Below are positions 7,500 through 27,613 of a stretch of DNA of 64,000 nucleotides, piece by piece. The stretch is from Euryarchaeota archaeon UBA103. GTDB lineage: Archaea > Thermoplasmatota > Poseidoniia > Poseidoniales > Thalassarchaeaceae. The stretch's first letter is position 1, and each line of letters starts with the position of its first letter. The stretch lies in NCBI GenBank assembly GCA_002506825.1, contig DAYH01000023.1:92905-156904 (forward strand), written 5' to 3'. The notes beneath the pieces are model-generated. The model worked only from the letters and a program-made list of their open reading frames with translations, made no database searches and was not told where the DNA came from. The position numbers and the translations under genes were made by a program.

Positions 7500-7546
7500 T
7501 GCTATGCCCCGCTGTGCGTGACGAAGGAGGGACTTAGTTAGAACGG

Positions 7547-12896: not shown

Positions 12897-13772
12897 GTGG
12901 TGCGGTCTGAATTGTCAAACTGTGGTTTACTTGATAGCTTAAGTTGTATTCCGAGACATGTGGATAATAGCGAACCAGCTGAATGGCTAGCCCTCAGAGA
13001 GGATGATGGTAGGGCATACCTTCTCCAGAGGACCCCTGGAGAAGTCAAAGTGAAGGGGCTCGGGAGGTTCGACGCTGAGGAGCTCCTGCGGGGATATTCA
13101 ATAGGCGACAGGATTACAGTGGGGCAGAAGTCGCTAACGATTGTCGTGCCTTCTCTTCCCGAAGCTAGGAGGAATATGGCTAGAAGGGCCCAGGTCATTG
13201 GGGCTAAGGACTCAGGATTCCTGATTTCTTGGATGGGTATTGGAGTCGGCTCGAGAGTACTTGAGGGCGGGCATGGTTCCGGTGGACTGGCGATGCATTT
13301 GGCCAATGTTATGGGAGCGGGAGGGACTCTGATATCTGTAGAGTCTAGACCAGAGCATGCGGAGGTAGGAAGGAAAAATATGGAAAGACTTTCCGAAGTC
13401 CTTCCTGAGTTTCCTGAGTGGCACCTAGTCGAAGGAGATATCTCGAGTGTTGGCGAATTAGTGGTCGATAAGTGCGGTATGATTGATGCGGCGATCATCG
13501 ATATTGCAGAGCCTTGGGACGTGATTCCTGACATAGAGCCCCTAATTAGGGCGGGAGGCAGGCTGGCTTGTTACTGCCCTACTACTATCCAATTGGAAAA
13601 GTGCTGGGAGGCCGCTGAGGACAGGGGCTTGATAGTCGAATGGGCTGGTGAGATGATTGAAAGAAGATGGGTAAAGGCTAGTAGAGGCGGAGTCAGGCCT
13701 GGCAATACCCCAATAGGGCATACTGCGTTTCTACTTATTTCAGCCAAGGTAGCTACTATTGAAGAGGAATGA
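12897..13772 (+). CDS. trmI: tRNA (adenine58-N1)-methyltransferase TrmI/Gcd14 family
   Basis: SAM-binding motif VLEGGHGSGGLAMHLA and AEPWDVIPDIEPLIRAGGRLACYCPTTIQ are typical of TrmI. The start is uncertain: the track uses GTG 12897, and an in-frame GTG at 12960 is an alternative. Confidence 0.75.
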   Translation: MVRSELSNCGLLDSLSCIPRHVDNSEPAEWLALREDDGRAYLLQRTPGEVKVKGLGRFDAEELLRGYSIGDRITVGQKSLTIVVPSLPEARRNMARRAQVIGAKDSGFLISWMGIGVGSRVLEGGHGSGGLAMHLANVMGAGGTLISVESRPEHAEVGRKNMERLSEVLPEFPEWHLVEGDISSVGELVVDKCGMIDAAIIDIAEPWDVIPDIEPLIRAGGRLACYCPTTIQLEKCWEAAEDRGLIVEWAGEMIERRWVKASRGGVRPGNTPIGHTAFLLISAKVATIEEE

Positions 13773-15217
13773 GCACCGTTGATAACTCGGACCCTTTCCG
13801 AAGAAACATGCGTGACAGCAAAGAGTGGATGCCGACCTCCTACAGGAGCCATACAATTGGGCAGGTTACCGAACTTGGAGATTCTCTGATTGGCACTGAA
13901 GTAACTATTTGCGGATATGCAGAGACAGTCAGAGGCAGGGGGGCAATTTGCTTCCTAATGCTAAGGGACGGTACTGGGAAAATTCAGGCATTCCTCAAGA
14001 AGGATAACATGGACGAGAGTTTGTTCGACTCGATTCAGTCTTCCTCCAGGGAGTCCACCATACGGGTTTCTGGGATAGTAGCTCAGAAGAGACCTCCGAA
14101 GGTCAAGGAAGGAGAGCCTGTCCCCCCTGCTGAATTTGAGGTAAATGTTTCATCGGGAGAAGTCCTTGCAGAGGCTTCTACCCCCCTTCCAGTTGGAGTC
14201 ATCGATGATGTCCAAGTTGGACTAGACATAAGACTGGATAACAGGCATCTAGACCTTAGGAGAGAGCATGTGAATGCTATGTTCCAACTCAGATCTAGAG
14301 TTCTCCAGTATGGCAGGGAGCATCTAATTTCAGAGGGTTTCCAAGAGATTAACAGCCCTAAAATAATAGCCGCGGCTGCTGAGGGAGGAACCAATCTTTT
14401 CCCTATGAAATACTTTGATACAGATGCTTACCTATCTCAGAGTCCACAGTTGTACAAACAATTAGCCATCCTAGGAGGCCTTGAGCGAGTTTTCGAGATT
14501 GGGCCCGCGTTTAGGGCCGAGAAGCATGATACGTACAGGCATCTGAATGAGTTTATTTCATTCGATATTGAGGGTGCTTGGATGGATGATGAGGACGTCA
14601 TGGGCGTACAAGAGAGAATGATTTTCCATATCTGGTCACAGGTCAAGAAAAATGACCAGCACCTTATTGATGCGGTAAATCAGTACAGAATATCTCAGGA
14701 AAAGGAAGAAGTGACAGTAGAGGTCCCAACATTGCCATTTCCCAGAATTCCCTACTGTGATGCAATTGAAATCGTGAAAGAGGGTGGCGGAGAGATTGAA
14801 TGGGGAGATGATATTGAGAGTCATCACTGTGATCTGATAGCGGCCAAATTCCCTGGTTTTCACTTCATTCCCAGATGGCCGATGGCCATGAAGCCGTTCT
14901 ACATACACCACAAAGAAGGAGAGCAAGGGGCCTCCGGAGGGCAACTAAGCAGGGGTTTCGATCTAAACTATGGAAGAGATGAGATGACCAGCGGAGGGGC
15001 CAGGGAGCACAGAGTTGATGTTTTAGAGCAGAATCTAAAGGACATGGGCTTGGACCCTAGTGACTTTTCGTTCTACACAGATGGATTTCGCTATGGGGCC
15101 CCTCCTCACGCAGGATGGGGATTGGGCGTTGCTAGATTATTGATGGTACTTACTGGCGCGGGCAATGTCAGAGAAGTAGTACTGTTCCCACGTGATAGAA
15201 GTAGGGTTACCCCCTAA
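13769..15217 (+). CDS. aspS: Aspartyl-tRNA synthetase, archaeal/eukaryotic type
   Basis: Class II motifs are present: FRAEKHDTYRHLNEF and GAPPHAGWGLGVARLLM. There is an OB-fold N-terminal domain. The gene overlaps the trmI stop by 4 nt. Confidence 0.9.
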   Translation: MSTVDNSDPFRRNMRDSKEWMPTSYRSHTIGQVTELGDSLIGTEVTICGYAETVRGRGAICFLMLRDGTGKIQAFLKKDNMDESLFDSIQSSSRESTIRVSGIVAQKRPPKVKEGEPVPPAEFEVNVSSGEVLAEASTPLPVGVIDDVQVGLDIRLDNRHLDLRREHVNAMFQLRSRVLQYGREHLISEGFQEINSPKIIAAAAEGGTNLFPMKYFDTDAYLSQSPQLYKQLAILGGLERVFEIGPAFRAEKHDTYRHLNEFISFDIEGAWMDDEDVMGVQERMIFHIWSQVKKNDQHLIDAVNQYRISQEKEEVTVEVPTLPFPRIPYCDAIEIVKEGGGEIEWGDDIESHHCDLIAAKFPGFHFIPRWPMAMKPFYIHHKEGEQGASGGQLSRGFDLNYGRDEMTSGGAREHRVDVLEQNLKDMGLDPSDFSFYTDGFRYGAPPHAGWGLGVARLLMVLTGAGNVREVVLFPRDRSRVTP

Positions 15218-15228
15218 CTGGTGATTCA

Positions 15229-15891
15229 ATGGGCCACATATTCTTACAGTCCAAGGATATCATGGACTGGGAAGGCAGGAAAAGGGCTAGATTCGTGAAT
15301 AGTCTAAGTGGGTTCAAGAGTGCTACCCTGATAGGTACCTTCCATCCTGAGTTTGGAGATAATCTATCAATAGTCTCCTCCGTTGTTCACCTAGGCTCTT
15401 CTCCCCCTATGATGGGATTCGTACTAAGGCCCCCAGGCGAGGATGCACACACTTACAAAAATATCAAGTCGACAGGAGTCTGTACATTTAGTCATGTAAA
15501 TGTGGATATTATTGAGAAAGCCCATCAGACTAGCGCGAGGTATCCGAGAGGAAGTAGCGAATTTGATGAAGTGGGGCTCACCCCTAGGAGAGTCGAAAAA
15601 TGGCTAGCCCCTTCTGTGGAGGAGGCTCATGTTAGGATGGGATTGACCCTACTAAATGACACGGAGCTGGTAAATGGATGTAGGTTCATGACTTTCTCCG
15701 TAGAATGGTTTGAGTTAGAGTCTGATGGTATGCGCGAGGATGGATATGTGGATCTGAGCAGTATCGGGGGTGTTGCTATTTCAGGGCTCGATGGATATCA
15801 TAAGACCCCGGGGATTTACAGACTTTCATATGCAAAAATTAATACTGAAATTGATAAAATGATTGATTTTGGAGCTGGGTGGCCTGAATAG
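15229..15891 (+). CDS. Flavin reductase-like (FMN-binding split-barrel) protein
   Basis: 220 aa laid out like COG1853 flavin reductases (FVNSLSGFKSATLIGT ... SSPPMMGF ... TYKNIKSTGVCTFSHV ... EFDEVGLTP). An LLM monooxygenase is encoded 1.6 kb downstream. Confidence 0.55.
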   Translation: MGHIFLQSKDIMDWEGRKRARFVNSLSGFKSATLIGTFHPEFGDNLSIVSSVVHLGSSPPMMGFVLRPPGEDAHTYKNIKSTGVCTFSHVNVDIIEKAHQTSARYPRGSSEFDEVGLTPRRVEKWLAPSVEEAHVRMGLTLLNDTELVNGCRFMTFSVEWFELESDGMREDGYVDLSSIGGVAISGLDGYHKTPGIYRLSYAKINTEIDKMIDFGAGWPE

Positions 15892-15963
15892 GCATGTATT
15901 GGCTATTTTCTAATCGCTCAGCAGAGGACCGAAAATAACGGGTATGTGTAGCCCCTCCGAAAC

Positions 15964-16695
15964 ATGAGTAACATGGCCAAGCCGAGGTTTGTATTTCTAC
16001 TATTAAGGGAACATCCGTATGGTCGTGAGATGCTCAGGCAACTACTCTCCGCAGGCCATTCCCCTGTACTGATAATAGAGGAAGATTCACCAGTTGCTGA
16101 TGAAGAAAGAGAGAAGTTTCTGGAGAGGATTGCGGGTAATGAGATAGCTCCTACTATTGAAGAACAGGCACTTAGAAATGGGATTTCGGTAGTTACAGTC
16201 CCTATACACAATTCATCTGAAGTCATGCCTCACATAGAAGAAATGGATCTGGATCTGGTTGTATTTGGAGGTACGAGAATAATCAGGGGAGATATTCTTG
16301 ATTTCCCCAAGGACGGAGTTGTTAACTCGCACCCAGGGCTTCTACCAGAATGTAGAGGGTCTGCATCTCCAGCGTGGTCGGTCTACCACGACATTCGAGT
16401 AGGGTCGACTTGTCATTTCTGCGACAATGGAATTGATACTGGCGAGATTCTACTCAGGAGAGAGTTCCCTGTGAAGCGTGGAATGACATATGAGGACCTC
16501 TGCTATGGGACACTAGTTCTTTCAGGAGTGTTGATGAAGGAAGCACTGATTGCATATGATAATGGGGAGTGGGCAGTGATGCGCAGTCCACAAGGAGCTA
16601 GTGAGTTCCCGACATTCAGGAACGCTCCAGAAGAAGTACTCGGGGCAGTTAGAGAAAAGCTCAGTGAAGAGGAGTATTCACATTACGTTGATTAG
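15964..16695 (+). CDS. Stand-alone formyltransferase (Formyl_trans_N domain only)
   Basis: Catalytic Asn/His motif VVNSHPGLLPECRGSASPAW and the downstream Asp in NGIDTGEILL match the PurN/Fmt fold. The Fmt C-terminal domain is absent. Confidence 0.75.
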   Translation: MSNMAKPRFVFLLLREHPYGREMLRQLLSAGHSPVLIIEEDSPVADEEREKFLERIAGNEIAPTIEEQALRNGISVVTVPIHNSSEVMPHIEEMDLDLVVFGGTRIIRGDILDFPKDGVVNSHPGLLPECRGSASPAWSVYHDIRVGSTCHFCDNGIDTGEILLRREFPVKRGMTYEDLCYGTLVLSGVLMKEALIAYDNGEWAVMRSPQGASEFPTFRNAPEEVLGAVREKLSEEEYSHYVD

Positions 16696-16703
16696 GTGAA
16701 AAA

Positions 16704-17504
16704 ATGGAAAAAAATCTCTTAGAAAGTGATTTCCCCTTTGCCGAGGGGATTCTTGATGGAAAAACAGCACTGGTATGTGGGGCCTCCAAGGGAATCGGGA
16801 GGGCCACAGCATTGGTTCTTGCTAGGGCGGGGTGTAGAATAATTGCATGTGCTAGATCAGCGGAACATCTTGAGTCACTTATGTCAGAAATGCATGGTTC
16901 GGGGCATGAATATCTGGTACTAGATATGGAGAGCCTAGAGTCAATTTCTCCTTCAGTGTCAGATTTAGGCACTGTCGACATACTTGTGAACAATTCTGGC
17001 GGACCTCCCGGAGGCCCACTGCTCGATAATTCAGTTGATGATTTTGAGGGCCCGTTCGCGAGGCACCTACACGCTTCTCACATTCTGACAAAGGAACTGG
17101 TACCCGGGATGGAAAAATCAGGAAGTGGCAGGATTGTGAATATTATCTCTACATCAGTTAGGGAGCCCATCGACAACATAGGACTTTCGAATACGTTGAG
17201 GGGCGCTATGGCATCGTGGTCGAAGTCGCTTTCCAGAGAGTTACCGGCTTGCATAACAATTAACAATATTCTTCCGGGATTCACAGACACCGACAGGCTA
17301 GGATCCCTTGCTAATTCTATTTCATCGAAAACGGGCATGGGGGTCGAAGAAGTACAGGAAAACTGGATTAACAGCGTCCCAATAGGGAGGCTTATTGACC
17401 CTCTAGAAACTGCTGTCGCGGTTGCATGGCTGTGCCTTCCATCTAGTGGGTCCGTGAGAGGAGTAAGTCTTGCCGTGGATGGCGGTAGAATGCGTTCCAT
17501 ATGA
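16704..17504 (+). CDS. Short-chain dehydrogenase/reductase (FabG-like)
   Basis: Cofactor motif GKTALVCGASKGIGRA, NNSGG and an SDR-length fold. The gene starts 8 nt after the previous stop. Confidence 0.85.
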   Translation: MEKNLLESDFPFAEGILDGKTALVCGASKGIGRATALVLARAGCRIIACARSAEHLESLMSEMHGSGHEYLVLDMESLESISPSVSDLGTVDILVNNSGGPPGGPLLDNSVDDFEGPFARHLHASHILTKELVPGMEKSGSGRIVNIISTSVREPIDNIGLSNTLRGAMASWSKSLSRELPACITINNILPGFTDTDRLGSLANSISSKTGMGVEEVQENWINSVPIGRLIDPLETAVAVAWLCLPSSGSVRGVSLAVDGGRMRSI

Positions 17505-17512
17505 GGGGTAAA

Positions 17513-18754
17513 ATGGAGTTCGATATTTTCTTCTCCATTTCGCAGACGCCGGATACCTCTGGTTTTGTCCCGAGTGAGAGTGAGATGTTCTCCAACTTCC
17601 TAAATCAGGCTGAACATGCTGATAAGCTTGGATTTGGAATTGGTTGGATAGCCCAGGCCCACCTATCAACAGAGATACAGAAAAGGAATACAAATCCAGT
17701 AGTGCCACACTACCCGGGGGAGGTGGGGCTTTGTACTGACTTCTTCCAGATTGCTCAGAAGGTTCTCTCTCGTACGGAAAGGATGGAGGTAGGTAGCGCA
17801 GTAATGAGTATCCTGGCTTCCGGCGGACCCATTGCTCAAGCGGAGAGAGTTGGATCATTCCTATCCTTACATGGACTCGATTCTGATGAAACAAGGAGGT
17901 TGCATATTGGATTCAGTGCCGGTAGGTTTGAGTTCATGGCTAGGCCATATGGAATAGTTCCTCGAGACCCAGTTGAGGAAGCAGCATGGCCCGCCCTTAG
18001 GGGAAGAGTTTTCGCAGAAGCATCTGAGATATTCCTTCGACTACTCAGAGGTGATGTTGTATCTAGCGATATGATTGGAAAGACCATCTTGACTAGGGCG
18101 AACTTCAGGAGCGATGAAGATTGGACCAGAGTCCAAGAAGAGGCCGTATCACATCATAGTTTGAGTGGTTTGCCTGAATCAATAGAGATTCCAAATAGAT
18201 ATGATTTTGAGGAGATAAAGATAATTCCTCAAGATTGGAATCGAGATCTTCTGAATTTAGTTCTTGGGAGTCACGACCCTGTCCTGCAGAAGGAGGTTAA
18301 CCACTGGATTCCTGTTCAGGTATTCAACCTCTCAATAACTCCACCTAGAATAATAGAGGAGACTCATGAGAGAATGAGAGAGTCTTACCACGTGGATGGT
18401 GGCCCATGGGAGCGGTCGATGATGCCCCGTACGGTCATGATTTTCATTAATGAAGAGGATTCTTTGAGTTCAGAAGAAAGGAGCTCTGAGGCTAAAATTG
18501 AGGCCAAGTCTGCCCTTTCTACATACTGGAGTGCCTTAGAAGGAACCATTGACCCTTCAAAGGTTGACAGGGCCGTGGACAACGCAGTGATAGGTAACGC
18601 TGAGGAAGTCGCACAACAAATTATTGAGAGGTTTGATTCCAATGATCGTTTGATGTGCTGGTTTGACTTCTTCAATCATGACAGTGAAAGGGTGATGAGG
18701 AACATGACTGCATTCATGACTAAGGTAGTCCCCCGAATCAATGGAGGGACATAG
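17513..18754 (+). CDS. Luciferase-like monooxygenase (LLM-class flavin-dependent oxidoreductase), LuxA-like layout
   Basis: The N-terminus MEFDIFFSISQTP...GFGIGWIAQAHLS parallels LuxA MKFGNFLLTYQPP...TVWLLEHHF. The C-terminus AEEVAQQIIERFDSNDRLMCWFDF parallels the LuxA C-terminal region. GAGGGG lies 5 nt upstream of ATG 17513. An alternative ATG at 17501 overlaps the SDR stop. Confidence 0.7.
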   Translation: MEFDIFFSISQTPDTSGFVPSESEMFSNFLNQAEHADKLGFGIGWIAQAHLSTEIQKRNTNPVVPHYPGEVGLCTDFFQIAQKVLSRTERMEVGSAVMSILASGGPIAQAERVGSFLSLHGLDSDETRRLHIGFSAGRFEFMARPYGIVPRDPVEEAAWPALRGRVFAEASEIFLRLLRGDVVSSDMIGKTILTRANFRSDEDWTRVQEEAVSHHSLSGLPESIEIPNRYDFEEIKIIPQDWNRDLLNLVLGSHDPVLQKEVNHWIPVQVFNLSITPPRIIEETHERMRESYHVDGGPWERSMMPRTVMIFINEEDSLSSEERSSEAKIEAKSALSTYWSALEGTIDPSKVDRAVDNAVIGNAEEVAQQIIERFDSNDRLMCWFDFFNHDSERVMRNMTAFMTKVVPRINGGT

Positions 18755-19927
18755 ATGGGAGGTCGTGATAATGTTCCTTCTTCGGTATCCCCCGGAAGGC
18801 CGGGATCCTCTCTTTACCCCTCTAATCCACTGGGGGAAAGGCATGATGGCATTGCCACGGGAAGGGATGTTGAATGGGAGCCTTTGGTAGATTTTCGAAG
18901 AATGGATATCTCGGAGAATACCATACATGGTGCAATAGCTTGGGCCCATGGGAATGAAATCATACATTCTTTCGGAGGTAATGTTCTGGTTTACGGTAGA
19001 TCGATGATGAAGCCATTTACAATGAAAGTCTTCAGCGAGGCCCTCTCCAATGTTGGCCTTACTTCGGAACAAATGGCCATTTCATGCTCATCTCATAACG
19101 GAGATACTGAACATGTTGCTGCGGCTCAGTCAATGCTGAGTGAATCTGAATGGGGCCTGATGCAATGCCCACTAGATGTCCCATTAATCCAGTTTGGAAG
19201 GCAGGTAAGGAGGCCTAGGAGATGGTTTCATACATGCTCTGGAGAACATGCGGCGATGCTCAAAGGAATGAGGCTGATGGGAATTAGTAGAGCTGGTTAC
19301 ACCCTCCCTAGCTCTGGTTGGTTTCCACTGTACCTAGATGTACTCAGAAGAATGATGGGTAAGCCAGATTGGGAGCCTCTGAGAGTAGCAAAGGATGGGT
19401 GCGGCCTGCCTACAGTATCGAATACTGTAGATGAGTTGGCAGTAATGATGGCTGGACTGGCCTTTGAGAAGGATGATGACTGGATTTGGGATGCGATGAC
19501 CGAGCATCCAGATCTGGTAGGAGGGTTCAACAGACTGGATTCAACCTGCCTCAAAGCAGGCGAGGGTAAAATTCTGGCGAAGGAAGGGGCGGATGGCCTA
19601 CTAGGCCTTTCCGTGGACCATCCCGACTGGCCAAATGGCCTAGGGATAGTTATCAAAATAGCTCATGGTTGGAATAGTCAGGCTACTTGGTATGTTGCCA
19701 GAGCCGTCTTAGGGGTATTGGGCGTCGAACTAAGAAACCCATATCCTTTGCATCGTCAGAAGGCGTTTATTGTTCCGGGAATTGTTCCCGATAGTATGCG
19801 AGAGGCCCTTGAAGAGGTTGTCACTTGGGACGAATGGGACCCCGATAGAGATAGATTCTCGATGGACTGGAGGGATTATTCTGAGGGAGCGACACGAGAA
19901 AACCCCTTTGCTAATGAGGGGTCCTGA
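18755..19927 (+). CDS. Asparaginase_II (Rhizobium AnsA-type) family protein
   Basis: Colinear motif matches to R. etli AnsA as I recall it: RSMMKPFTMK, SCSSHNGDTEHV, CSGEHAAML, KDGCGLPT and EHPDLVGG. The gene starts on the base after the LLM stop. Confidence 0.65.
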   Translation: MGGRDNVPSSVSPGRPGSSLYPSNPLGERHDGIATGRDVEWEPLVDFRRMDISENTIHGAIAWAHGNEIIHSFGGNVLVYGRSMMKPFTMKVFSEALSNVGLTSEQMAISCSSHNGDTEHVAAAQSMLSESEWGLMQCPLDVPLIQFGRQVRRPRRWFHTCSGEHAAMLKGMRLMGISRAGYTLPSSGWFPLYLDVLRRMMGKPDWEPLRVAKDGCGLPTVSNTVDELAVMMAGLAFEKDDDWIWDAMTEHPDLVGGFNRLDSTCLKAGEGKILAKEGADGLLGLSVDHPDWPNGLGIVIKIAHGWNSQATWYVARAVLGVLGVELRNPYPLHRQKAFIVPGIVPDSMREALEEVVTWDEWDPDRDRFSMDWRDYSEGATRENPFANEGS

Positions 19928-21360
19928 TGAAAATACTGAACTATATCAAAGGTAAATTTAACGAGCCGATATCCTCAGAATGGATGGATAATTTTTCACC
20001 TTCTACTGGTGAGGTTATCGGAAGTATTCCCCTATCAGGGGATGCTGATGTCAGATCTGCAATCGCTGCCGCCAAGAGCGCCCTTCCGGAATGGAGTAGT
20101 CTTGACCCATCCGATAGGGCTCTTTGGTTGGATAAGATAGCTGACTGCCTAGAAGAGAAATTCGAGGAGATCGCACACTTAGAGAGCATGGATACTGGGA
20201 AGCCCATATCTCTGGCCCGATCGGTTGATGCAAGGAGATCGGTCTCAAACTTCAGATTCTTCTCAGAAATGATCAGAGATAGGGAAGATGAGGTTTTTGA
20301 GATGGAAGATGCCACTAATATAGTGAAGCTTAGAGCTGTTGGAGTTGGTGCACTAATCACTCCTTGGAATCTACCACTATACCTCCTTTCATGGAAGGTT
20401 GCTCCGGCCATTGGCATGGGCAATACCGTAGTCTGTAAGCCTAGTGAGCTAACCCCTCTAACTGCTGACCTCCTAATGAGGGTAATAGACGAGGTGGGCC
20501 TACCGCCGGGTGTGGTCAATCTCGTTCATGGAAATGGAAATGCGGGATCGATACTTACTGGCGATCCCGACGTAGACCTTGTCTCGTTCACCGGAGGGAC
20601 ATCTACAGGTGCAAAGGTAGCACAGTCTGCATCTCCTCAATTCAAGAAGTTGAGTTTAGAACTGGGTGGCAAGAATGCTAGTATAGTATTCTCAGATTGT
20701 AATCTGGAAGAAACCGTCAAAGGAGTTACTAGGGCTGCATTTCTAAACCAGGGGCAGGTTTGTTTGTGTGGCTCTAGGATACTCGTGGAAGATCCGATTT
20801 ATGACCAATTCATGGATATGTTCGTAGAGTCCGTAGAGTCTATGGTCATTGGTGATCCAATGCATGAGGATACCGACCTAGGAGCCTTGATTTCCAAGCA
20901 ACACCTAGAGAAGGTTGAGAGTTATGTATCACTAGCTCTGGAGGAGGGTGGAGAAATAGTAACCGGGGGTAAGCCGTGCTTACCGAAAGAATTGGAAGGT
21001 GGAAATTGGATGTCCCCCACAGTAGTGACTGGCCTAGGAACCGAATCAAGATGCTCGACAGAGGAGGTCTTCGGACCGTTTGTTACCGTACATCGGTTCA
21101 ATTCCGAGGAAGATGCAATAAAAATTGCAAATAATACGAGATACGGGTTAGCTGGCAGTATTTGGACTGGCGATATAGAAAGGGGCAAGAGAGTAGCCGA
21201 GAGTATCCATACTGGGATGATCTGGGTAAATACTTGGCTACACAGGGACCTTCGAGTACCTTTTGGGGGGGTTAAGGATAGTGGAGTCGGAAGAGAAGGC
21301 GGGAAATGGAGTATGGGGTTCTTCTCAGAGCCGCTTAATGTATGCCTAAAGCACGATTGA
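19927..21360 (+). CDS. NAD(P)-dependent aldehyde dehydrogenase (ALDH8 / hydroxy- or aminomuconic-semialdehyde-DH-like)
   Basis: ALDH motifs ELGGKNASIVF and NQGQVCLCGSRILV, plus FGGVKDSGVGREGG. The start overlaps the upstream stop (TGATG). Confidence 0.85.
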   Translation: MKILNYIKGKFNEPISSEWMDNFSPSTGEVIGSIPLSGDADVRSAIAAAKSALPEWSSLDPSDRALWLDKIADCLEEKFEEIAHLESMDTGKPISLARSVDARRSVSNFRFFSEMIRDREDEVFEMEDATNIVKLRAVGVGALITPWNLPLYLLSWKVAPAIGMGNTVVCKPSELTPLTADLLMRVIDEVGLPPGVVNLVHGNGNAGSILTGDPDVDLVSFTGGTSTGAKVAQSASPQFKKLSLELGGKNASIVFSDCNLEETVKGVTRAAFLNQGQVCLCGSRILVEDPIYDQFMDMFVESVESMVIGDPMHEDTDLGALISKQHLEKVESYVSLALEEGGEIVTGGKPCLPKELEGGNWMSPTVVTGLGTESRCSTEEVFGPFVTVHRFNSEEDAIKIANNTRYGLAGSIWTGDIERGKRVAESIHTGMIWVNTWLHRDLRVPFGGVKDSGVGREGGKWSMGFFSEPLNVCLKHD

Positions 21361-22385
21361 TGCGCAAGACTGTAAGACATGAGCGCGACGGGCCATTGAT
21401 TAGAATGGCACCTATTGGAATCATCGGAGTTGGCTCATACGTTCCACCCCGTGAAATGAGTAATGATGATTGGGCAGAAATCGTGGATACCAGTGACGAG
21501 TGGATTACTACCAAGACTGGTATGAAAAAAAGAAGGATTGCAGACTCTACTATGTGTACGTCTGACTTAGCCGTAGAGGCCTGCAGAGTGGCATTAGATA
21601 ATTCTGGACTGAAGGCGTCTGATATCGATTTGATTATACTGGCAACATCTTCTCCTGATGTCCCTATGTCTTCAACGGCTGGAATAGTTCAGCATAAGCT
21701 AGGTTGTACGGATTGTGTTGCTTTTGACGTCAATGCGGTATGTGCTGGTTGGGTTCATGCGCTGGATATAGGATCCAGATTTGCAGGAACAGAGGGGTAT
21801 GGAAACGTACTAGTTGTTGGATCCGAGGTATACTCTAGAATCCTGAATTGGGAAGATCGTTCTACTTGTGTACTATTTGGAGATGGTGCAGGGGCCGTGG
21901 TACTTTCCCAGGTCCCAGAGGGGAAGGGAATTATTGGATCATGGATGATGAGTGATGGCTCTGGATCCAGCGTTATTGAGATTCCTGCAGGAGGGGTCAG
22001 GATTCCGATCCCTAGTGAAGGTTTCAAAGATGGAATGCAATACTTTCACATGGACGGGAGGGCCGTTTGGGACTTTGCAATCGAGGCGTTTCCTCAAGCG
22101 GTATTATCAGTTCTCGAAAGATATGGAAAAACTATAGATGAAGTTGATCTTATTGTACCTCATCAGGCCAACATAAATATCATTGAGAAGGGGATGGAGA
22201 AGCTAGGACTCCCCATGGACAGAACGTTCACGAATCTCCATAAGTATGGAAATACGGCGGGGGCGAGTGTCCCTATTGCAATGCATGAGGCATTCGAAGA
22301 AATGAAGATCGTAGAAGGGGACCTGGTCGTCACCGTTGCATTTGGTGGTGGCTTGGCATGGGGCGCTAATCTCATTCAGTTCTAA
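21360..22385 (+). CDS. 3-oxoacyl-ACP synthase III (KAS III / FabH-like) condensing enzyme
   Basis: Cys-His-Asn triad motifs are present: NAVCAGWVHAL, VPHQANINII and YGNTAGASVPIAM. Possible starts are ATG 21360 (overlapping the ALDH stop), 21342 or 21405. Confidence 0.8.
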   Translation: MRKTVRHERDGPLIRMAPIGIIGVGSYVPPREMSNDDWAEIVDTSDEWITTKTGMKKRRIADSTMCTSDLAVEACRVALDNSGLKASDIDLIILATSSPDVPMSSTAGIVQHKLGCTDCVAFDVNAVCAGWVHALDIGSRFAGTEGYGNVLVVGSEVYSRILNWEDRSTCVLFGDGAGAVVLSQVPEGKGIIGSWMMSDGSGSSVIEIPAGGVRIPIPSEGFKDGMQYFHMDGRAVWDFAIEAFPQAVLSVLERYGKTIDEVDLIVPHQANINIIEKGMEKLGLPMDRTFTNLHKYGNTAGASVPIAMHEAFEEMKIVEGDLVVTVAFGGGLAWGANLIQF

Positions 22386-25300
22386 TTGACAGGGCCCCAA
22401 GAGCCGGTAGACTGGTTGAAAGAGAGGATTGAACCATCTGGATTCTGACAGTACACATTGCCCGTATTATCGACCCAAACAAGTTGCCCGTTTTCATTCA
22501 TCTTAGCATCACTGGGAGGCTTAATTGACTCTATTCTTCTTTCTTCTGGCTGAGGGGATGTAGAGATGGGGACTGAAACATTTGAGTATATTGTAGACTC
22601 ATTTCTTACCATACCAGAATCATCTGATTGAGAGAATAATGACTGATCATTTTCCCCTCTCCCCCTCACAAAGAGCAGTCCTCCGAGGGCGCCTATCACT
22701 ACGACAGAAACTAGTGCCGTGAAAATAAGCATTGTTGTTGATTCCTCGGCTACTTGTCTGTCAGGATCGTTTGGGAATGCATCTCCGTTGTCTCCTACGC
22801 CATCTAGGTCTGAGTCTTCCCACTCAAATGGATCTAGGGGGAAGTCATCTACGCCGTCCATGAATCCATCATCATCAGAATCTGGATCGGTAGCACTTGT
22901 ATTTCTTGCATCTTCCTCCATATCGGACGAGCCATCATTGTCATCATCAGTATCCGAGTTATCCCCTATGCCGTCCATGTCATTATCATTCCACTCGGTC
23001 GAATCTAGAGGGAGGTCGTCTTGCAAATCTGGGAATCCATCATTGTCATCGTCATCGTCCTCTTCTGAATCCTTACAGCCATCTAGATCATTGTCGATAT
23101 CTACTGTGCTGGCCCACCCAACTAAGCCTATTGGACATCTATCGAAGATATCATCAATTCCATCTCCATCATCGTCCAAATCCACTTCATCATGGAGCCT
23201 ATCCCCATCTGAGTCGAGAAGGCAATCATCCGCTGATGTAGAAGATTCTTGCAGGGTAATCATATCTTCAGGACATTTTTCTGTAGCTATACTTCGTGTC
23301 GATGGTACGAACTCATCGAGTGGAGCGGGCGTCTGCTGGGCCTGTCCTTGTTCAGATACGAAGAATCCTATGTCTGCATCTATGCAAGTTGATTGGCCTG
23401 GGGATGGCTGGAAAGTTCCCGGCAGACATTCTTCTTGTGAAACAGATGCTTCGGATGAAGTGAAGAACCCTGGGCTTGCATCTAGGCAGGCTGATTGCCC
23501 TGGAGTTGGCTGATAAGTTCCAGGCACGCATGGATTCTGATTGTTAGAGCCTTCAGAGAGTGTGTAGTAGCCCGGTTCGGTCAGCATGCAGGATATCTGT
23601 CTTGTCTGATTCTGGTAGCTCCCTGGCATACACGGAGTCTGCTCGGAAGAACCGGAAGAGTCGGCATAGTATCCCTCTTCTGAGTCCAAGCAAGCTGATT
23701 GGCTTGTTGCGGATTCATCCGGGTTGTAAGTTCCCGCGGGACATGGATTTTGGGAAGTGGACATTTCTGAGTCTACATAGAAGCCAGAATCCGCATTGAT
23801 GCAATTTTGCTGGCCGGGCGAAGGCTGATATTCTCCTATCTGACATTCTTCTTGGCTATCTTCGCCTGATAATTCGACGAAGTGTCCGGGATCTGCCTGC
23901 AAGCATGATTCTTGTCCAGCATACGGCTGATAGTCTCCCGGAGAGCATGGAGTCTGGTACGAAGCTCCGAGAATTGCCGAGTAGTTCCCTGGATCGGCTT
24001 CTAGACAAGCGGTAGAGCTGTTTGCCCCAGATACTGGGTTATAGCTTCCAGAGGAGCATGGAATCTGTGTAGATGATGCATTGCTATCTGTGTAGAACCC
24101 GGGACTGGCCTCTAGACATTCGGTGAGTCCAGCCTGATTAGCCCAATAACCAGGGAGGCAGGGAGAAGGCGATGTAGCTCCTCCTGAGTCGATATAGTAG
24201 CCTGGTGGCGCTGGAGTGCAAGAAGTCTGCCCAGACATAGATTGGTAGAATCCGGAAGTACAGGGGGTCTGGTAGGAGGAGCCATTGCTAGGGACGGCAT
24301 GCCCGGGGTCTGCATCTAAGCAAGACTGAGAGCTATTGGCCGCATCTGATGGATTGTAGGTACCAGCTGAGCAGGGAGTCTGAGTAGTAGAGCCAGGCTG
24401 CTCTACGTAGTATCCCGGATACGCGTCGATACACTCTGTTGCCATGTAAGAAGACTGGAATGTTCCAGGCTGGCACGGAGTTTGTGATGAAGACGCATTC
24501 GATGGGACGTAGTTACCAGGGGTCGCCTGCAGACACAGTGTCTGATTCGAAGATGGCTGATAGAAACCGGGATCGCAGGCTATCTGTGAGATGCTTGCAA
24601 TTCCGGGCACATAATGCCCCGGAGATGACGATAGACAGGATTGCTGAGCAGACAGTGGCTGGTAATATCCCGGATCGCAGGGGATTTGGGATGTCGAGCT
24701 GTAGTTAGGAACATGATGTCCGGAAGAGGCGTCAATACAGGAGGTAGAGCCATTAGAAGGCTGATATGTTCCCGGTGAGCAAGCAGTTTGGTTAGAAGAC
24801 CCAGAGGTCACGACATAGTTCCCAGCAGACGCGACGATACATGCCACCTGTGCAAATGAAGACTGGTAGTTTCCTGGGCTGCATTGTGTTTGGGAAGTTG
24901 CTCCTGGTTGAGGAACGTAGTTACCAGGGGAAGATGGAGTCTGGAAAGAGGACCCGCTCAGGGATACAAAGTAACCCTGACTAGCCTGCATACATGAAAT
25001 TTGACCGGATAGAGGCTGGTACGATCCAGGGGCACACATATCCTCAGAAGTTGCTCCGACTGAGGAGACATACCTTCCGGGGGAGGCGTTATCGCATGAA
25101 CCGCTACCAGTTTTTCCCTGATAAGTTCCTGGCTGGCACTGGAAGAATCCGACTTGTATCTCTGCGTCGATTGACTCTGTTTGATTACCGATGGCCGAGT
25201 TGTCGAGAGTTGATTTTAGAGTAAGTGTGAAACTATAATTCCCAGAGCTTGAGTTATTAGGGGTAACTGAAATAAGTAATGACGAAGCATTCGTGAAGGA

Positions 25301-27613
25301 TGTTCCAATGGTACTTACGCTTGCTACATTTCCTCCCTGTGAAGAGTTATCTGATGTGGAAATCAGGGACATGGCCATTGAGGAGTCGTAGTAGTACAAG
25401 CTAACGCTAAAGTCCCCATTCGAGGATGAGTTAGTGAGACTAACTGAGACGGTAGTATCTCTCGGAACGAATATCGAGAATAAGTCGCCGGAGTCATTGG
25501 ACCATGAGTAGTTCCCAATTTGTCCGCCATAGGTGGCACTCCTAGACTGAAGCGGAGTGGGGGATACATCATCCGCATCGCCGTATTGGTTGTTCGTATA
25601 ATTTCCTGCGGGGGAGGGGGTGCATGATGACTGTGCGAGGTCATTCTGATAGAAACCAGGAGCACAATGATACTGGCCGGGAGATGCTTCTTCATCGACG
25701 TAATACCCACTTGATGCCTCGTAGCAAATAGTTCGCCCCTCATCGGGTTGGTAGTTTCCTATTGTACAGCTTTCATGGAAAAGGGAGCCTTGTAAAGAGA
25801 AGTGGCCAGAGGATGAGTTCTGACATGATAATCGCCCCCATTGACCGTCTGGACAGCTTACCCATCTAGCTGGATTATTTGGAAAATCATCTATTGATGA
25901 GTTAAACCCGTCCCCATCGCTGTCGTCACTGATGGCCAAATCCAAAACATTACGAATTCCGTCTCCATCAAGATCCTGTTCAGAGTATGCAACTGATTCC
26001 CCAAGAGTGGAGTTATTGAAGTCCATCAGATATGGCACGAGGATATCATTTGAGGACCCATCAAATTCTCCGGACTGACTTCCCCAACAGAACAGGGAGT
26101 AGCTCTGATTTATCGCACATGTGGATTCAATGCCAGTTGCTAATGCTATCGCTGGAGATGGCATGAGGGCGTATGAGGGAACGTTCCCGTCCGTTCCTGA
26201 GCAACTGCTGGAACTGGAGCTACAGGTCCCATCCCCCCACTGTCCATGAGTATTGACTCCCCAGCAACTAATTGACCCATTGTCCAACAAGGCACATGTG
26301 TGCCATCTAGTGCCATCAATATCGGATGCTGTCCTACCATTTGGCAACTGAATATCAGATGATGAACCTGTTACTGGGCCATTCTGAGCGGAAACTGTGT
26401 AGGTCTTACCCCAGCAACTGATCGACCCGTTATCGAATATAGCACATACGCTATATCCCGGAGTTACCAATGAGGATGCCCTAAGGCCCGTTGAGTGATT
26501 AGCCAACACTGGTGAGTTTCTACTGGTCGTAGTGCCATCGCCTAGATTTCCGAAACCATTGAATCCCCAACACTTGATTTCACCAGTATCTAGGATTGCA
26601 CAGGTGAAATCATTACCTGCTGAAACAGAAATTGCTGTTCTATTTACTCCCAGGTCAACTGCTACAGGAGAGTTTCTGTTAACATTTGAGCTATCTCCTA
26701 TTTGACCGTGATTATTCCTTCCCCAGCAATTGAGCGATGCATCGTCCAGAATTGCACAATTATGGTAGTTCCCATTTGAAATAGCAACAGGAGTCCGAGT
26801 TCCGAAGTCGACAGTCCCATTACTTAGGGAGTTTAAGCCGATTCCTAGTTGGCCATAGTTGTTTGCTCCACTGCACCTAAGGGTCCTGTTGTACAGAATT
26901 GTACAGTCTCCTGCGCTTGAAATTACTTCGTCATTGGTGACTACTGGAGCCCCTGTACTATTGAAAGTCACTAGGCTTCCATTGGATAGGACAAGTGTAG
27001 GGGAGCCAGTATCCAAGTCTAGAACTGAGTGACTGAAGACAGAGCCCCTATCTGATCCTGGTTGATTGAAACCCAGGTTATTTACAGGAGTTGGTGTTGG
27101 TGATGACGATACCTCGCTAAGTGTCCATGAGTCGGCCCCCCATGAGTCTCCAGAGGTCCCTCCATTGCCATTAACTAGGTTTACAGCCAGATAGAATACT
27201 ACGTCTCCAGAACCTGTCGGAGGGGCTGTCCAATCAACTGACCATGCCCTGGAATTAGAGTTCGTATGGGTTACCTCGCCTAAGGAAATCTGAGCATTCG
27301 GCCCTGGATTAGAGAAAACACCCTGGCTGGAGTCCAGATTGAATCCTCCAGTAGTGCCGCTTGGCCCTCCAGAAGCGCTTATTGAAAGAGAATATGTGAT
27401 ACCTGCGGCATAGCCAGATGAGGGAGTACCCGATAGAGAGGGAGTGACAGTTGGAGTGGTCGAGGAATGGCATGAGCCAGCCCCGCAACCATCTGTAGAA
27501 CCGGTTCGTCCAGAGCTGTTCGCGAATGCGGTATCTGGGACAGCCATTAGCAAAAGCATCAGAAAGGTTCCCACAATAATTATTCTAGTTTTCATACTAC
27601 TCTCGTCCACCAT
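22382..27613 (-). CDS. Giant (1743 aa) mosaic surface protein built from many domain types (order given in the evidence)
   Basis: Domain order: signal peptide, reeler-like CX4CH domain, RCC1 propeller, TSP3 repeats, Cys-pair (ephrin-receptor-like) repeats, PPC-like domain, 17 more Cys-pair repeats, acidic TSP3 block, TM helix and cytoplasmic tail. Supporting motifs: signal peptide MKTRIIIVGTFLMLLLMAVPDTAFA; W..WTAP..G.V.F reeler-like pattern; six NxxGQLG/CWG blades; DDDGDGIDDIFDRCP type-3 repeats; TM LIFTALVSVVVIGALGGLLFV. Confidence 0.85.
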   Translation of the reverse strand: MVDESSMKTRIIIVGTFLMLLLMAVPDTAFANSSGRTGSTDGCGAGSCHSSTTPTVTPSLSGTPSSGYAAGITYSLSISASGGPSGTTGGFNLDSSQGVFSNPGPNAQISLGEVTHTNSNSRAWSVDWTAPPTGSGDVVFYLAVNLVNGNGGTSGDSWGADSWTLSEVSSSPTPTPVNNLGFNQPGSDRGSVFSHSVLDLDTGSPTLVLSNGSLVTFNSTGAPVVTNDEVISSAGDCTILYNRTLRCSGANNYGQLGIGLNSLSNGTVDFGTRTPVAISNGNYHNCAILDDASLNCWGRNNHGQIGDSSNVNRNSPVAVDLGVNRTAISVSAGNDFTCAILDTGEIKCWGFNGFGNLGDGTTTSRNSPVLANHSTGLRASSLVTPGYSVCAIFDNGSISCWGKTYTVSAQNGPVTGSSSDIQLPNGRTASDIDGTRWHTCALLDNGSISCWGVNTHGQWGDGTCSSSSSSCSGTDGNVPSYALMPSPAIALATGIESTCAINQSYSLFCWGSQSGEFDGSSNDILVPYLMDFNNSTLGESVAYSEQDLDGDGIRNVLDLAISDDSDGDGFNSSIDDFPNNPARWVSCPDGQWGRLSCQNSSSGHFSLQGSLFHESCTIGNYQPDEGRTICYEASSGYYVDEEASPGQYHCAPGFYQNDLAQSSCTPSPAGNYTNNQYGDADDVSPTPLQSRSATYGGQIGNYSWSNDSGDLFSIFVPRDTTVSVSLTNSSSNGDFSVSLYYYDSSMAMSLISTSDNSSQGGNVASVSTIGTSFTNASSLLISVTPNNSSSGNYSFTLTLKSTLDNSAIGNQTESIDAEIQVGFFQCQPGTYQGKTGSGSCDNASPGRYVSSVGATSEDMCAPGSYQPLSGQISCMQASQGYFVSLSGSSFQTPSSPGNYVPQPGATSQTQCSPGNYQSSFAQVACIVASAGNYVVTSGSSNQTACSPGTYQPSNGSTSCIDASSGHHVPNYSSTSQIPCDPGYYQPLSAQQSCLSSSPGHYVPGIASISQIACDPGFYQPSSNQTLCLQATPGNYVPSNASSSQTPCQPGTFQSSYMATECIDAYPGYYVEQPGSTTQTPCSAGTYNPSDAANSSQSCLDADPGHAVPSNGSSYQTPCTSGFYQSMSGQTSCTPAPPGYYIDSGGATSPSPCLPGYWANQAGLTECLEASPGFYTDSNASSTQIPCSSGSYNPVSGANSSTACLEADPGNYSAILGASYQTPCSPGDYQPYAGQESCLQADPGHFVELSGEDSQEECQIGEYQPSPGQQNCINADSGFYVDSEMSTSQNPCPAGTYNPDESATSQSACLDSEEGYYADSSGSSEQTPCMPGSYQNQTRQISCMLTEPGYYTLSEGSNNQNPCVPGTYQPTPGQSACLDASPGFFTSSEASVSQEECLPGTFQPSPGQSTCIDADIGFFVSEQGQAQQTPAPLDEFVPSTRSIATEKCPEDMITLQESSTSADDCLLDSDGDRLHDEVDLDDDGDGIDDIFDRCPIGLVGWASTVDIDNDLDGCKDSEEDDDDDNDGFPDLQDDLPLDSTEWNDNDMDGIGDNSDTDDDNDGSSDMEEDARNTSATDPDSDDDGFMDGVDDFPLDPFEWEDSDLDGVGDNGDAFPNDPDRQVAEESTTMLIFTALVSVVVIGALGGLLFVRGRGENDQSLFSQSDDSGMVRNESTIYSNVSVPISTSPQPEERRIESIKPPSDAKMNENGQLVWVDNTGNVYCQNPDGSILSFNQSTGSWGPVN
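23330..25138 (-). repeat. About 17 tandem 34-37-aa units, C-x-PG-x-Y-Q-x(5-8)-C-x(3,4)-PG-x-Y-V-x(9-11) (coding repeat, roughly 102-111 nt period)
   Basis: The first Cys of successive units falls at aa 826, 860, (894 degenerate), 911, 945, 979, 1013, 1047, 1081, 1118, 1152, 1186, 1223, 1257, 1291, 1328, 1362 and 1396. Each has a second Cys at +14 or +17. Three similar units lie at aa 587-675 (25589..25855). Confidence 0.8.
26069..26941 (-). repeat. RCC1/BLIP-II-like beta-propeller repeats (6-7 blades, about 50-aa period)
   Basis: Blade motifs are CSGANNYGQLGIG, CWGRNNHGQIGDS, CWGFNGFGNLGDG, CWGKTY, CWGVNTHGQWGDG and CWGSQSGEFDGS. Each is preceded by C(A/T)IL.D. Confidence 0.75.

Follow-up and report, generated by a model that had tools for sequence, protein, structure and literature searches.

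The 64-kb stretch of Thalassarchaeaceae DNA (Poseidoniales, Marine Group II) studied here, referred to below as the window, carries a run of seven same-strand genes at 15229–22385, the middle five of which encode a formyltransferase homologue, a short-chain dehydrogenase/reductase (SDR) homologue, a luciferase-like monooxygenase (LLM), an Asparaginase_II homologue (AsnII) and an aldehyde dehydrogenase (ALDH). We are largely confident that this operon serves tryptophan/kynurenine catabolism via 2-aminophenol and 2-aminomuconate. With less assurance, though still on the side of probability, 15964–21360 would be a five-gene operon with its own upstream element, encoding the central part of a tryptophan (kynurenine) catabolism that does without kynureninase. 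For the step in the middle our suggestion falls a little short of an even call: the LLM would carry out a Baeyer-Villiger/Dakin oxygenation of kynurenine, and AsnII would hydrolyse the resulting beta-aspartyl aryl ester or anilide to aspartate and 2-aminophenol. Somewhat more tentative again is the broader claim that Marine Group II and several bacterial phyla share an undescribed kynureninase-free tryptophan route, built on an LLM of Baeyer-Villiger type and a remodelled asparaginase and, in the archaea, on formyl transfer to tetrahydrofolate instead of formate release. The features concerned, all on the forward strand, are as follows.

15229–15891, +: Flavin_Reduct (split-barrel) protein, 220 aa (PF01613)
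15928–15959, +: conserved non-coding element, ACCGAAAATAACGGGTAT (15928–15945), 6 nt, then CCCCTCCG (15952–15959)
15964–16695, +: stand-alone Formyl_trans_N protein, 243 aa, at the 5' end of the conserved operon (PF00551, 48.8 bits)
16704–17504, +: atypical SDR, 266 aa (PF00106/PF13561)
17513–18754, +: divergent LLM flavin monooxygenase, 413 aa (PF00296, 32 bits)
18755–19927, +: Asparaginase_II (class 3 L-asparaginase) homologue, 390 aa (PF06089, 162 bits)
19927–21360, +: ALDH of the AMSDH/AmnC/NbaE type, 477 aa (best PDB matches are AMSDH)
21405–22385 (ORF opens at 21342), +: KAS III / FabH-type ketosynthase (NCBIfam NF006829)

As an overall function, catabolism of tryptophan to 2-aminomuconate belongs to a known kind; its middle steps would be new, and so would the three enzyme groups proposed for them. 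Our search of the literature covered open full texts, with subscription papers lying outside it, and returned no account of such a cassette, nor any of kynurenine as a substrate of an LLM or of tryptophan breakdown leading to 2-aminophenol. To our knowledge, neither the cassette nor such a route has been described. An earlier account of this DNA, made from its letters alone and called here the sequence-only reading, had stated that it knew of no characterised pathway with this combination of genes, and none came up in the literature searched.

A conserved five-gene unit in Poseidoniales

The seven genes lie 3' of a gene for a tRNA m1A methyltransferase (GCD14) and one for a non-discriminating aspartyl-tRNA synthetase (AspRS). 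All seven ORFs are present on the forward strand, and the domains predicted for them by the sequence-only reading (PF01613, PF00551, PF00106/PF13561, PF00296, PF06089, PF00171 and PF08545/PF08541) were all matched. Its spacing after aspS is likewise borne out: 11, 72, 8, 8 (or a 4-nt overlap), 0 and -1 nt. The choice between 8 nt and the overlap depends on whether the LLM starts at 17513 or 17501; since most homologues are 413 aa long and begin with MEFD, 17513 is the most likely start. The 1-nt overlap between ALDH and KAS III, on the other hand, did not hold, as it needs an N-terminal extension that even relatives with 92% identity do not share. Since the homologues are 326 aa long, KAS III most likely starts at 21405, 44 nt past the ALDH stop. 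Translational coupling from SDR through LLM and AsnII to ALDH is plausible, because GGAGG-like motifs (GAGGGG, GGAGGG) lie 5–9 nt 5' of the start codons of LLM, AsnII and ALDH.

Scanning GTDB species genomes with the LLM gave at least 581 matching stretches, of which the best 80 were compared. All 80 are from Poseidoniales except one record titled Acidimicrobiaceae, which we take to be a mis-binned contig. The order formyltransferase-SDR-LLM-AsnII-ALDH is found in nearly every one of the ~80 Poseidoniales species loci with a long enough contig, so the conserved synteny that had been expected in related genomes is there, for five genes. A seven-gene operon is too wide: because the flavin reductase and KAS III are not consistently kept across the compared loci, the conserved unit, as judged from gene order, is 15964–21360, with formyltransferase, SDR, LLM, AsnII and ALDH as its members.

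The tblastn table behind this comparison takes in 90 sequences, made up of the window and 89 other loci. Of these others 11 have a homologue of the flavin reductase, all but one of them among the closer relatives of the window, and a PF01613 gene is absent from the remaining Poseidoniales and from all bacterial clusters examined. Thus a flavin reductase gene is not generally kept beside the oxygenase, as it would be in a two-component system, and the proposal that the two are obligate partners fails, the gene being confined to the window's close relatives. The protein itself has 3fge as its best PDB match (E=7e-51), and it may supply reduced flavin to the LLM in the window's clade only. Between aspS and the formyltransferase gene, other lineages have instead a 56-aa ORF, a cupredoxin or indoleamine 2,3-dioxygenase (IDO); since the IDO in this slot (locus L065, below) is functionally linked, the place of the flavin reductase outside the core is compatible with a link of its own.

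KAS III is a genuine FabH-type enzyme (NF006829, 380 bits against a cut-off of 249), and it follows ALDH in 63 of the 90 sequences. In some genomes a T2SSE gene on the opposite strand stands between the two. KAS III is missing from those Poseidoniales loci in which LigB-LigB-RidA follow ALDH and is present where that module has moved away. A KAS III near the Myxococcota cassette is only ~30% identical to that of the window, to be set against 51–65% for the cassette proteins of Holophagaceae. KAS III is therefore probably a lineage-specific neighbour and not a member of the pathway, as it had been taken to be. As a separate observation, one Poseidoniales subgroup has a gene for a 280-aa TPR-repeat protein between SDR and LLM (L155, 4830–5672, and ten further loci: L125, L126, L133, L136, L146, L157, L163, L166, L167 and L173).

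Genes for tryptophan opening adjoin the cassette

Bacterial contexts, reached through a profile of distant LLM relatives, came from Actinoplanes, Myxococcota, Bdellovibrionales, Holophagaceae and Planctomycetota. In Holophagaceae (L087) the order is TDO-SDR-LLM-AsnII-ALDH-LigB-LigB/RidA, where TDO is tryptophan 2,3-dioxygenase. In Planctomycetota (L088/L089) it is TDO-SDR-LLM with AsnII-ALDH a few genes on; in Myxococcota (L094) SDR-LLM-AsnII-ALDH-(MopE)-LigB and then RidA-Cyclase; and in Bdellovibrionales (L095) and one further bacterial genome M17 peptidase-SDR-LLM-AsnII-ALDH-LigB-LigB/RidA-Cyclase, with 4-nt overlaps in the latter genome. Identity to the window, calculated for the Holophagaceae locus as the sole bacterial one, is 51% for SDR, 56% for LLM, 65% for AsnII and 53% for ALDH, and we therefore regard the two as one orthologous cassette. 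The four other bacterial loci (Planctomycetota, Myxococcota, Bdellovibrionales and the further genome) have SDR-LLM-AsnII-ALDH with the same Pfam families, and the five catabolic loci together span at least four phyla.

TDO lies directly 5' of SDR in Holophagaceae and Planctomycetota. Among Poseidoniales, L084 (the same locus as metagenome L097) has TDO and a thiolase diverging from the cassette, in the order thiolase, TDO on one strand and formyltransferase-SDR-LLM-AsnII-ALDH-LigB1-LigB2-RidA on the other. In the Thalassarchaeaceae locus L065, permease, RidA, LigB2 and LigB1 diverge from IDO-formyltransferase-SDR-LLM-AsnII-ALDH. Its IDO (7274–8386, +; PF01231, E=2e-96) lies directly 5' of the formyltransferase gene, in the slot of the window's flavin reductase; IDO genes are, as far as we know, unusual in archaea. 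Because TDO and IDO are non-homologous enzymes giving the same N-formylkynurenine, the presence of either one beside the cassette is strong evidence for the substrate.

In some of the bacterial loci the next enzyme of tryptophan catabolism is also encoded nearby. The Cyclase genes of Myxococcota and Bdellovibrionales are for KynB-type arylformamidase, i.e. kynurenine formamidase (TIGR03035, 193–209 bits, full length), and a third bacterial operon has a Cyclase-family (PF04199) gene in the KynB position. Across Poseidoniales TDO is widespread, and its usual place is a TDO-thiolase locus away from the cassette. That locus (L090–L093, 10001–14766: TDO, then thiolase) lies in most Poseidoniales beside genes for haem A synthesis (COX15/CtaA, UbiA/CtaB); the TDO-linked thiolase may belong to the lower pathway. 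A comparison of the window with the TDO and LigB loci by blastn gave no common flanks outside the cassette.

In Actinoplanes-type loci the LLM adjoins PrnB, an enzyme of the TDO superfamily, so that in several phyla the LLM has TDO, IDO or PrnB for a neighbour. These loci (L086, L177), whose LLMs form a sub-branch of the family, have the order LysE-LLM-PrnB, with bacterial microcompartment shell genes, PEP-utilising enzyme genes and TDO (HAD-fused in L177) nearby, and in L086 tryptophan synthase genes as well. No AsnII or ALDH gene was found in either of them, and they look like a different tryptophan-derived pathway.

The ALDH and its neighbours point to 2-aminophenol

The other end of the route is indicated by the ALDH. 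Its seven best PDB matches are all 2-aminomuconate-6-semialdehyde dehydrogenase (AMSDH), with E from 4.6e-134 to 1.3e-127 (4u3w first, then 4npi/4i1w and 7bzv). All 92 orthologues keep the catalytic residues C279, E245 and N148 and also R104 and R440. The last two are the equivalents of the arginines that hold the substrate carboxylate (Arg120 and Arg464 by the numbering of 4i1w). The closest NCBIfam model is that of 2-hydroxymuconic semialdehyde dehydrogenase (TIGR03216), at 545 bits and below the cut-off of 693, in a collection that has no AMSDH model. Judged by these residues and matches, the window ALDH is of the AMSDH type. This, together with an SDR that lacks the catalytic Tyr and Lys, speaks against the suggestion that SDR and ALDH take an alcohol through an aldehyde to an acid. 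An analogy with 10-formyl-tetrahydrofolate dehydrogenase, which has formyltransferase and ALDH domains, was dropped as well, for the same reason that the ALDH is AMSDH-like.

The genes that accompany ALDH in related loci lead to the same compound. LigB1 of L084 is a full-length match to the 2-aminophenol 1,6-dioxygenase beta subunit (E=1e-107), and the only matches of LigB2 are to the two subunits, alpha and beta, of this dioxygenase (alpha, E=8e-39). LigB1-LigB2-RidA lie directly 3' of the cassette ALDH in ~20 of 80 marine metagenome loci and elsewhere in the rest, and are abundant in marine metagenomes; LigB/RidA genes follow ALDH in the bacterial operons as well. No gene for kynureninase, KMO, HAAO or ACMSD was found in any cluster examined. 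Three observations on this module may be added. In ~30 loci LigB1-LigB2-RidA are followed by an amino-acid permease gene (e.g. L155, 9932–14186; L065, 807–6625, -). The L155 permease carries a pair of EF-hands at its C-terminus, and RidA there is extended at the N-terminus by ~85 residues (~218 aa in total). In L084/L097/L100 a gene for PurP, the formate-dependent FAICAR synthetase, comes after RidA (L084, 16247–17359), and may bear on what becomes of the formyl group from N-formylkynurenine.

The likeness to the 2-aminophenol meta-cleavage pathway (AmnBA/CnbCab, AmnC/NbaE, AmnD-type RidA) is therefore in the AMSDH-type ALDH with both arginines kept, and in the homologues of both dioxygenase subunits and the Rid-family protein that related loci carry after it. 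Unlike that pathway, the module is here joined to TDO/IDO, SDR, LLM and AsnII, and the proposed feed is tryptophan and not nitrobenzene or aminophenol; none of the genes for 4-oxalocrotonate decarboxylase, hydratase and aldolase was seen in the clusters, and the window's lineage does not have the dioxygenase and deaminase genes next to the cassette. With the kynurenine pathway the proposed route would share the entry by TDO or IDO, KynB in the bacteria, and AMSDH as a late enzyme. It differs in having LLM, a class 3 asparaginase homologue and an atypical SDR in place of kynureninase, KMO, HAAO and ACMSD, in having a formyltransferase homologue in the place of the formamidase in Poseidoniales, and in its predicted side-chain product, aspartate instead of alanine.

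A proposed route from kynurenine to 2-aminophenol

Since no kynureninase or ACMSD gene is found in the clusters and the downstream enzymes are specific for 2-aminophenol, and not for 3-hydroxyanthranilate with a decarboxylase, SDR, LLM and AsnII would between them have to cover the conversion of kynurenine, an o-aminoaryl ketone, to 2-aminophenol. We propose the following scheme. TDO or IDO, encoded outside the window, would open tryptophan to N-formylkynurenine, which would be deformylated by the formyltransferase homologue in Poseidoniales or by the KynB arylformamidase in bacteria. In a Baeyer-Villiger/Dakin oxidation by flavin hydroperoxide, drawing on reduced flavin and O2, the LLM would then place one oxygen between the ring of kynurenine and the carbonyl of its side chain. 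The product, by aryl migration, would be the beta-aspartyl ester of 2-aminophenol, which could rearrange to N4-(2-hydroxyphenyl)asparagine via the free ortho-amine. AsnII would split this beta-aspartyl derivative into L-aspartate and 2-aminophenol. An AmnAB-type 2-aminophenol 1,6-dioxygenase, whose genes are adjacent in other Poseidoniales and elsewhere in the window's genome type, would form 2-aminomuconate semialdehyde; the window ALDH would oxidise this to 2-aminomuconate, and a RidA-type deaminase would take off the amino group.

The formyltransferase homologue exceeds the PF00551 cut-off (48.8 against 26.1 bits) but scores far below the cut-off of every named NCBIfam model (Fmt, 53.8 against a cut-off of 201.5; PurN, 38.9 against 150.1). 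As in other Formyl_trans_N enzymes (PurN, Fmt, sugar N-formyltransferases, the hydrolase domain of 10-formyl-tetrahydrofolate dehydrogenase, PurU), the SHPGLLPxCRG motif and the Asn/His/Asp triad are invariant, the latter (N121, H123, D158) in 82 orthologues; unlike them, the protein lacks a C-terminal domain, and its gene opens a catabolic operon. Almost all Poseidoniales cassettes have it; the bacterial cassettes all lack it, and three of these have the KynB-type or Cyclase gene instead. We read this complementary distribution as non-orthologous replacement at the deformylation step, and propose that the protein deformylates N-formylkynurenine, either by transfer to tetrahydrofolate or by hydrolysis. 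As N-formylkynurenine and 10-formyl-tetrahydrofolate are both N-aryl formamides, the transfer would be chemically reasonable.

The LLM is a divergent member of its family. It matches PF00296 marginally (32.2 bits, cut-off 27.9) and only over profile positions 1–143 of 314, its bacterial relatives doing somewhat better (46–51 bits), and its best PDB match by sequence is LuxA (E=0.11). An AlphaFold2 model of medium confidence (pLDDT 68.9, pTM 0.67) was compared with the PDB by Foldseek: the top 50 matches were all of the LLM family, with probability 1.00 and target-normalised TM-scores of 0.6–0.75, and included RslO1, luciferases, diketocamphane monooxygenase and HcbA1. A luciferase-type (beta/alpha)8 TIM-barrel fold is thus supported by the model. 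The family is narrow, with matches at E<=0.001 in 319 of 1.84 billion 50%-identity cluster representatives, most of which are fragments. One relative, P0123 (1501 aa, possibly eukaryotic), joins an LLM of the cassette family (47% identity) to a class-I glutamine amidotransferase, an ApbE flavin-transferase and ~400 unassigned C-terminal residues. Fusion to ApbE in a distant homologue and the nearby flavin reductase gene of the window's clade are indirect hints that the LLM may bind reduced FMN (or F420) and react with O2. The fold, and in the window's clade a flavin reductase gene nearby, are shared with type II (FMN-dependent, two-component) Baeyer-Villiger monooxygenases and bacterial luciferase; the cassette LLM differs from these in its marginal sequence similarity, ~80 extra residues and the isolation of its family. 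We propose that it acts as a Baeyer-Villiger/Dakin-type oxygenase on kynurenine or N-formylkynurenine, because the clusters examined have no kynureninase gene, the downstream enzymes are specific for 2-aminophenol and the hydrolase is of asparaginase type. Lux-like bioluminescence was rejected, with LuxA matching at E=0.11 only and luxCDE genes lacking, and a Rut-like pyrimidine pathway (LLM, flavin reductase, amidohydrolase, SDR) was dropped in view of the TDO/IDO and AmnAB neighbourhoods.

AsnII has as its best PDB match ReAV (63–66 bits), a class 3 asparaginase of Rhizobium etli that, like ReAIV, belongs to PF06089. In ReAV, pattern II is made up of Arg47, Ser48-Lys51 and Ser80-Lys263, and the arginine anchors the alpha-carboxylate of L-asparagine (PMC12292245). 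The corresponding residues of AsnII (R82, S83, K86, S113 and K276) are invariant in 97 orthologues; equivalents of these and of Cys135, His139 and Cys189 are kept in all or nearly all of them, and those of Asp187 and Tyr156 are also present. The zinc site of class 3 pattern I (Cys135, Lys138, Cys189 with His139, Tyr156, Asp187 and Cys249) is, however, altered: the ligand Lys138 is Glu164 in essentially all of the 97 orthologues, and Cys249 aligns with Asp in the window protein. Both Ser-Lys tandems and the alpha-carboxylate Arg are thus kept and the metal site is remodelled, as would suit a beta-aspartyl substrate whose leaving group is a different one. AsnII also differs from ReAV and ReAIV in lying within an aromatic-catabolic operon, and this context argues for a beta-aspartyl substrate other than L-asparagine. 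In catabolic clusters AsnII is always found together with the LLM, including those with a formamidase, and since AsnII and KynB occur in the same operons AsnII is not merely the formamidase. We propose that it hydrolyses the beta-aspartyl 2-aminophenyl ester or N4-(2-hydroxyphenyl)asparagine, an O- or N4-aryl beta-aspartyl compound in place of asparagine, to L-aspartate and 2-aminophenol. It is assigned to this step because ester and anilide are both beta-aspartyl derivatives, i.e. contain the type of bond that asparaginases hydrolyse.

The SDR lies immediately 5' of the LLM in archaea and bacteria. It has the glycine motif (GASKGIG) and NNxG; where YxxxK would be expected, all 93 orthologues have S162-N-T-x-R166, and Arg51 too is invariant. 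The Ser-Tyr-Lys signature of classical SDRs is thus lacking, and the same replacement is seen in the uncharacterised Burkholderia SDRs 5vps and 5idx. The protein may serve the LLM as an NAD(P)H:flavin reductase, or may reduce the downstream dienoate product.

Several points weigh against the route as drawn. The Baeyer-Villiger step and the hydrolysis of the ester or anilide are deduced from the genes that the clusters lack and from chemical logic. By tblastn, TDO, IDO, LigB and RidA (and also KynB) were not found within the 64-kb window, and most Poseidoniales loci are without TDO, IDO, LigB and RidA within 10 kb. Synteny in Poseidoniales also takes in the housekeeping genes GCD14/TrmI and AspRS, so that on its own it is a weak argument, and it is the cross-phylum neighbourhoods, about ten of them inspected, that carry the case. 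The SDR has no step in the scheme and no canonical catalytic residues, and the LLM model is of medium confidence (pLDDT 69). Finally, we know of no precedent for a formyltransferase acting on an aryl formamide in either direction.

Other readings of the cassette

The reading that survives best beside our own, and which we nevertheless hold to be unlikely, is a kynurenine pathway of canonical type with substitutes. In it the LLM would be an analogue of KMO acting at C3, kynureninase would be encoded elsewhere, an AmnAB-like enzyme would cleave 3-hydroxyanthranilate, with decarboxylation and ALDH following, and AsnII would be a formamidase or some other amidase. The links to TDO/IDO, LigB, ALDH and RidA would be the same, 3-hydroxyanthranilate is itself a 2-aminophenol, and a few LLMs work on aromatic rings, among them HcbA1 from the Foldseek matches. 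This scheme is at odds with the absence of kynureninase and ACMSD genes from every cluster examined, with the coexistence of AsnII and a dedicated KynB formamidase, and with the full-length match of LigB1 to the 2-aminophenol 1,6-dioxygenase beta subunit, and it leaves an asparaginase-type site with an alpha-carboxylate anchor unexplained.

Less probable than this is a route in which a kynureninase encoded elsewhere forms anthranilate, which the LLM converts to 2-aminophenol by oxidative decarboxylation, AsnII and SDR being accessory. Such a route accounts for the module of AmnAB, AMSDH and RidA and gives the LLM a role as an oxygenase, at the price of an unlinked kynureninase. Oxidative decarboxylation of aromatic acids is normally the work of another class of flavoprotein hydroxylases, and the invariant pairing of LLM and AsnII, kept even in the minimal context of L096, would have no explanation.

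It is a shade more improbable still that 2-aminophenol derives from some other aromatic amine (an environmental N-aryl amide or a nitroaromatic product) and that the adjacency to TDO/IDO is coincidental or reflects a shared regulon. Modules of AmnAB, AMSDH and deaminase were first described in nitrobenzene and aminophenol degraders, and most Poseidoniales loci are without an adjacent TDO; but enzymes that form N-formylkynurenine, or belong to the same superfamily, adjoin the cassette or its LLM in several independent lineages (TDO in three, IDO in one, PrnB in the Actinoplanes type). In addition, the Myxococcota and Bdellovibrionales operons contain the tryptophan-specific arylformamidase and a third operon a gene of its family, and the cassette is near-universal in a peptide-degrading order of marine archaea.

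The least probable reading, with the comparative data largely against it, is the original one of a seven-gene operon for oxidation of long-chain alkyl or aldehyde substrates, or for an N-formylated or acylated small molecule made with KAS III. The domain content is as it described, the spacing is tight and KAS III follows ALDH in many Thalassarchaeaceae. Neither function is supported, however, since the flavin reductase and KAS III are not conserved members, the ALDH is AMSDH-like, and the cross-phylum neighbours are tryptophan and aminophenol genes and not lipid or biosynthetic ones: the neighbourhoods in archaea and in the five bacterial loci point to tryptophan/kynurenine catabolism via 2-aminophenol.

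If the chemistry of the kynureninase-free route is as proposed, it would be a third way to cut the side chain of kynurenine, and one that yields aspartate; kynureninase yields alanine, and transamination yields kynurenate. Three unassigned enzyme groups would then have their first physiological function, the Asparaginase_II family would gain a function beyond the hydrolysis of asparagine, and a new LLM reaction would be defined. Few archaea are as abundant in the surface ocean as Poseidoniales, which are uncultured and whose metabolism is known from genome inference alone. A cassette that is present in nearly every species locus examined, and has so far been annotated by generic family names, would gain a testable role in recovering aspartate, a one-carbon unit, ammonia and carbon from tryptophan.

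A conserved element 5' of the formyltransferase gene

The non-coding element listed above ends 5 nt 5' of the formyltransferase ATG. Its 18-nt part, ACCGAAAATAACGGGTAT, precedes the formyltransferase gene once per locus in 88 loci (82 distinct sequences). Conservation reaches 96% or more at 14 of its 18 positions and stops abruptly at the edges, the flanks being random, whichever gene lies 5'. In the window it is single at up to 3 mismatches, where 0 would be expected by chance. The element consists of an A/T-rich, BRE/TATA-like core within an imperfect palindrome, ACCG-N7/8-CGGT, and an Rfam scan of 15200–22500 gave no match. Altogether, it is probably a promoter and operator for a putative regulator, marking the 5' end of the five-gene operon; if so, the conserved operator would point to a dedicated regulator. 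The 18-mer is nowhere else in the compared loci, including 5' of TDO or of the unlinked LigB operons, and there is therefore no evidence of a shared regulon.

Other genes of the window

In a Pfam scan the remainder of the window contains housekeeping genes only. The aspartyl-tRNA synthetase gene (13769–15217) lies directly 5' of the operon in most Poseidoniales, the proposed pathway being one that would yield aspartate, and an Ntn-type asparaginase gene (PF01112; 6708–7499, -) lies 8 kb upstream; the presence of both near an operon that may release aspartate is probably a coincidence. Convergent with KAS III is a gene for a 1743-aa secreted or anchored protein with Cys-rich repeats (22382–27613, -), whose position is kept in other Poseidoniales and whose homologues in L001–L003 have Pfam matches to RCC1 and Ephrin-receptor-like. 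Further on, at 29551–30858 (-), the window encodes a 435-aa protein with an RRM_1 RNA-recognition motif (E=1e-24), a domain uncommon in archaea, and a treble-clef zinc finger.

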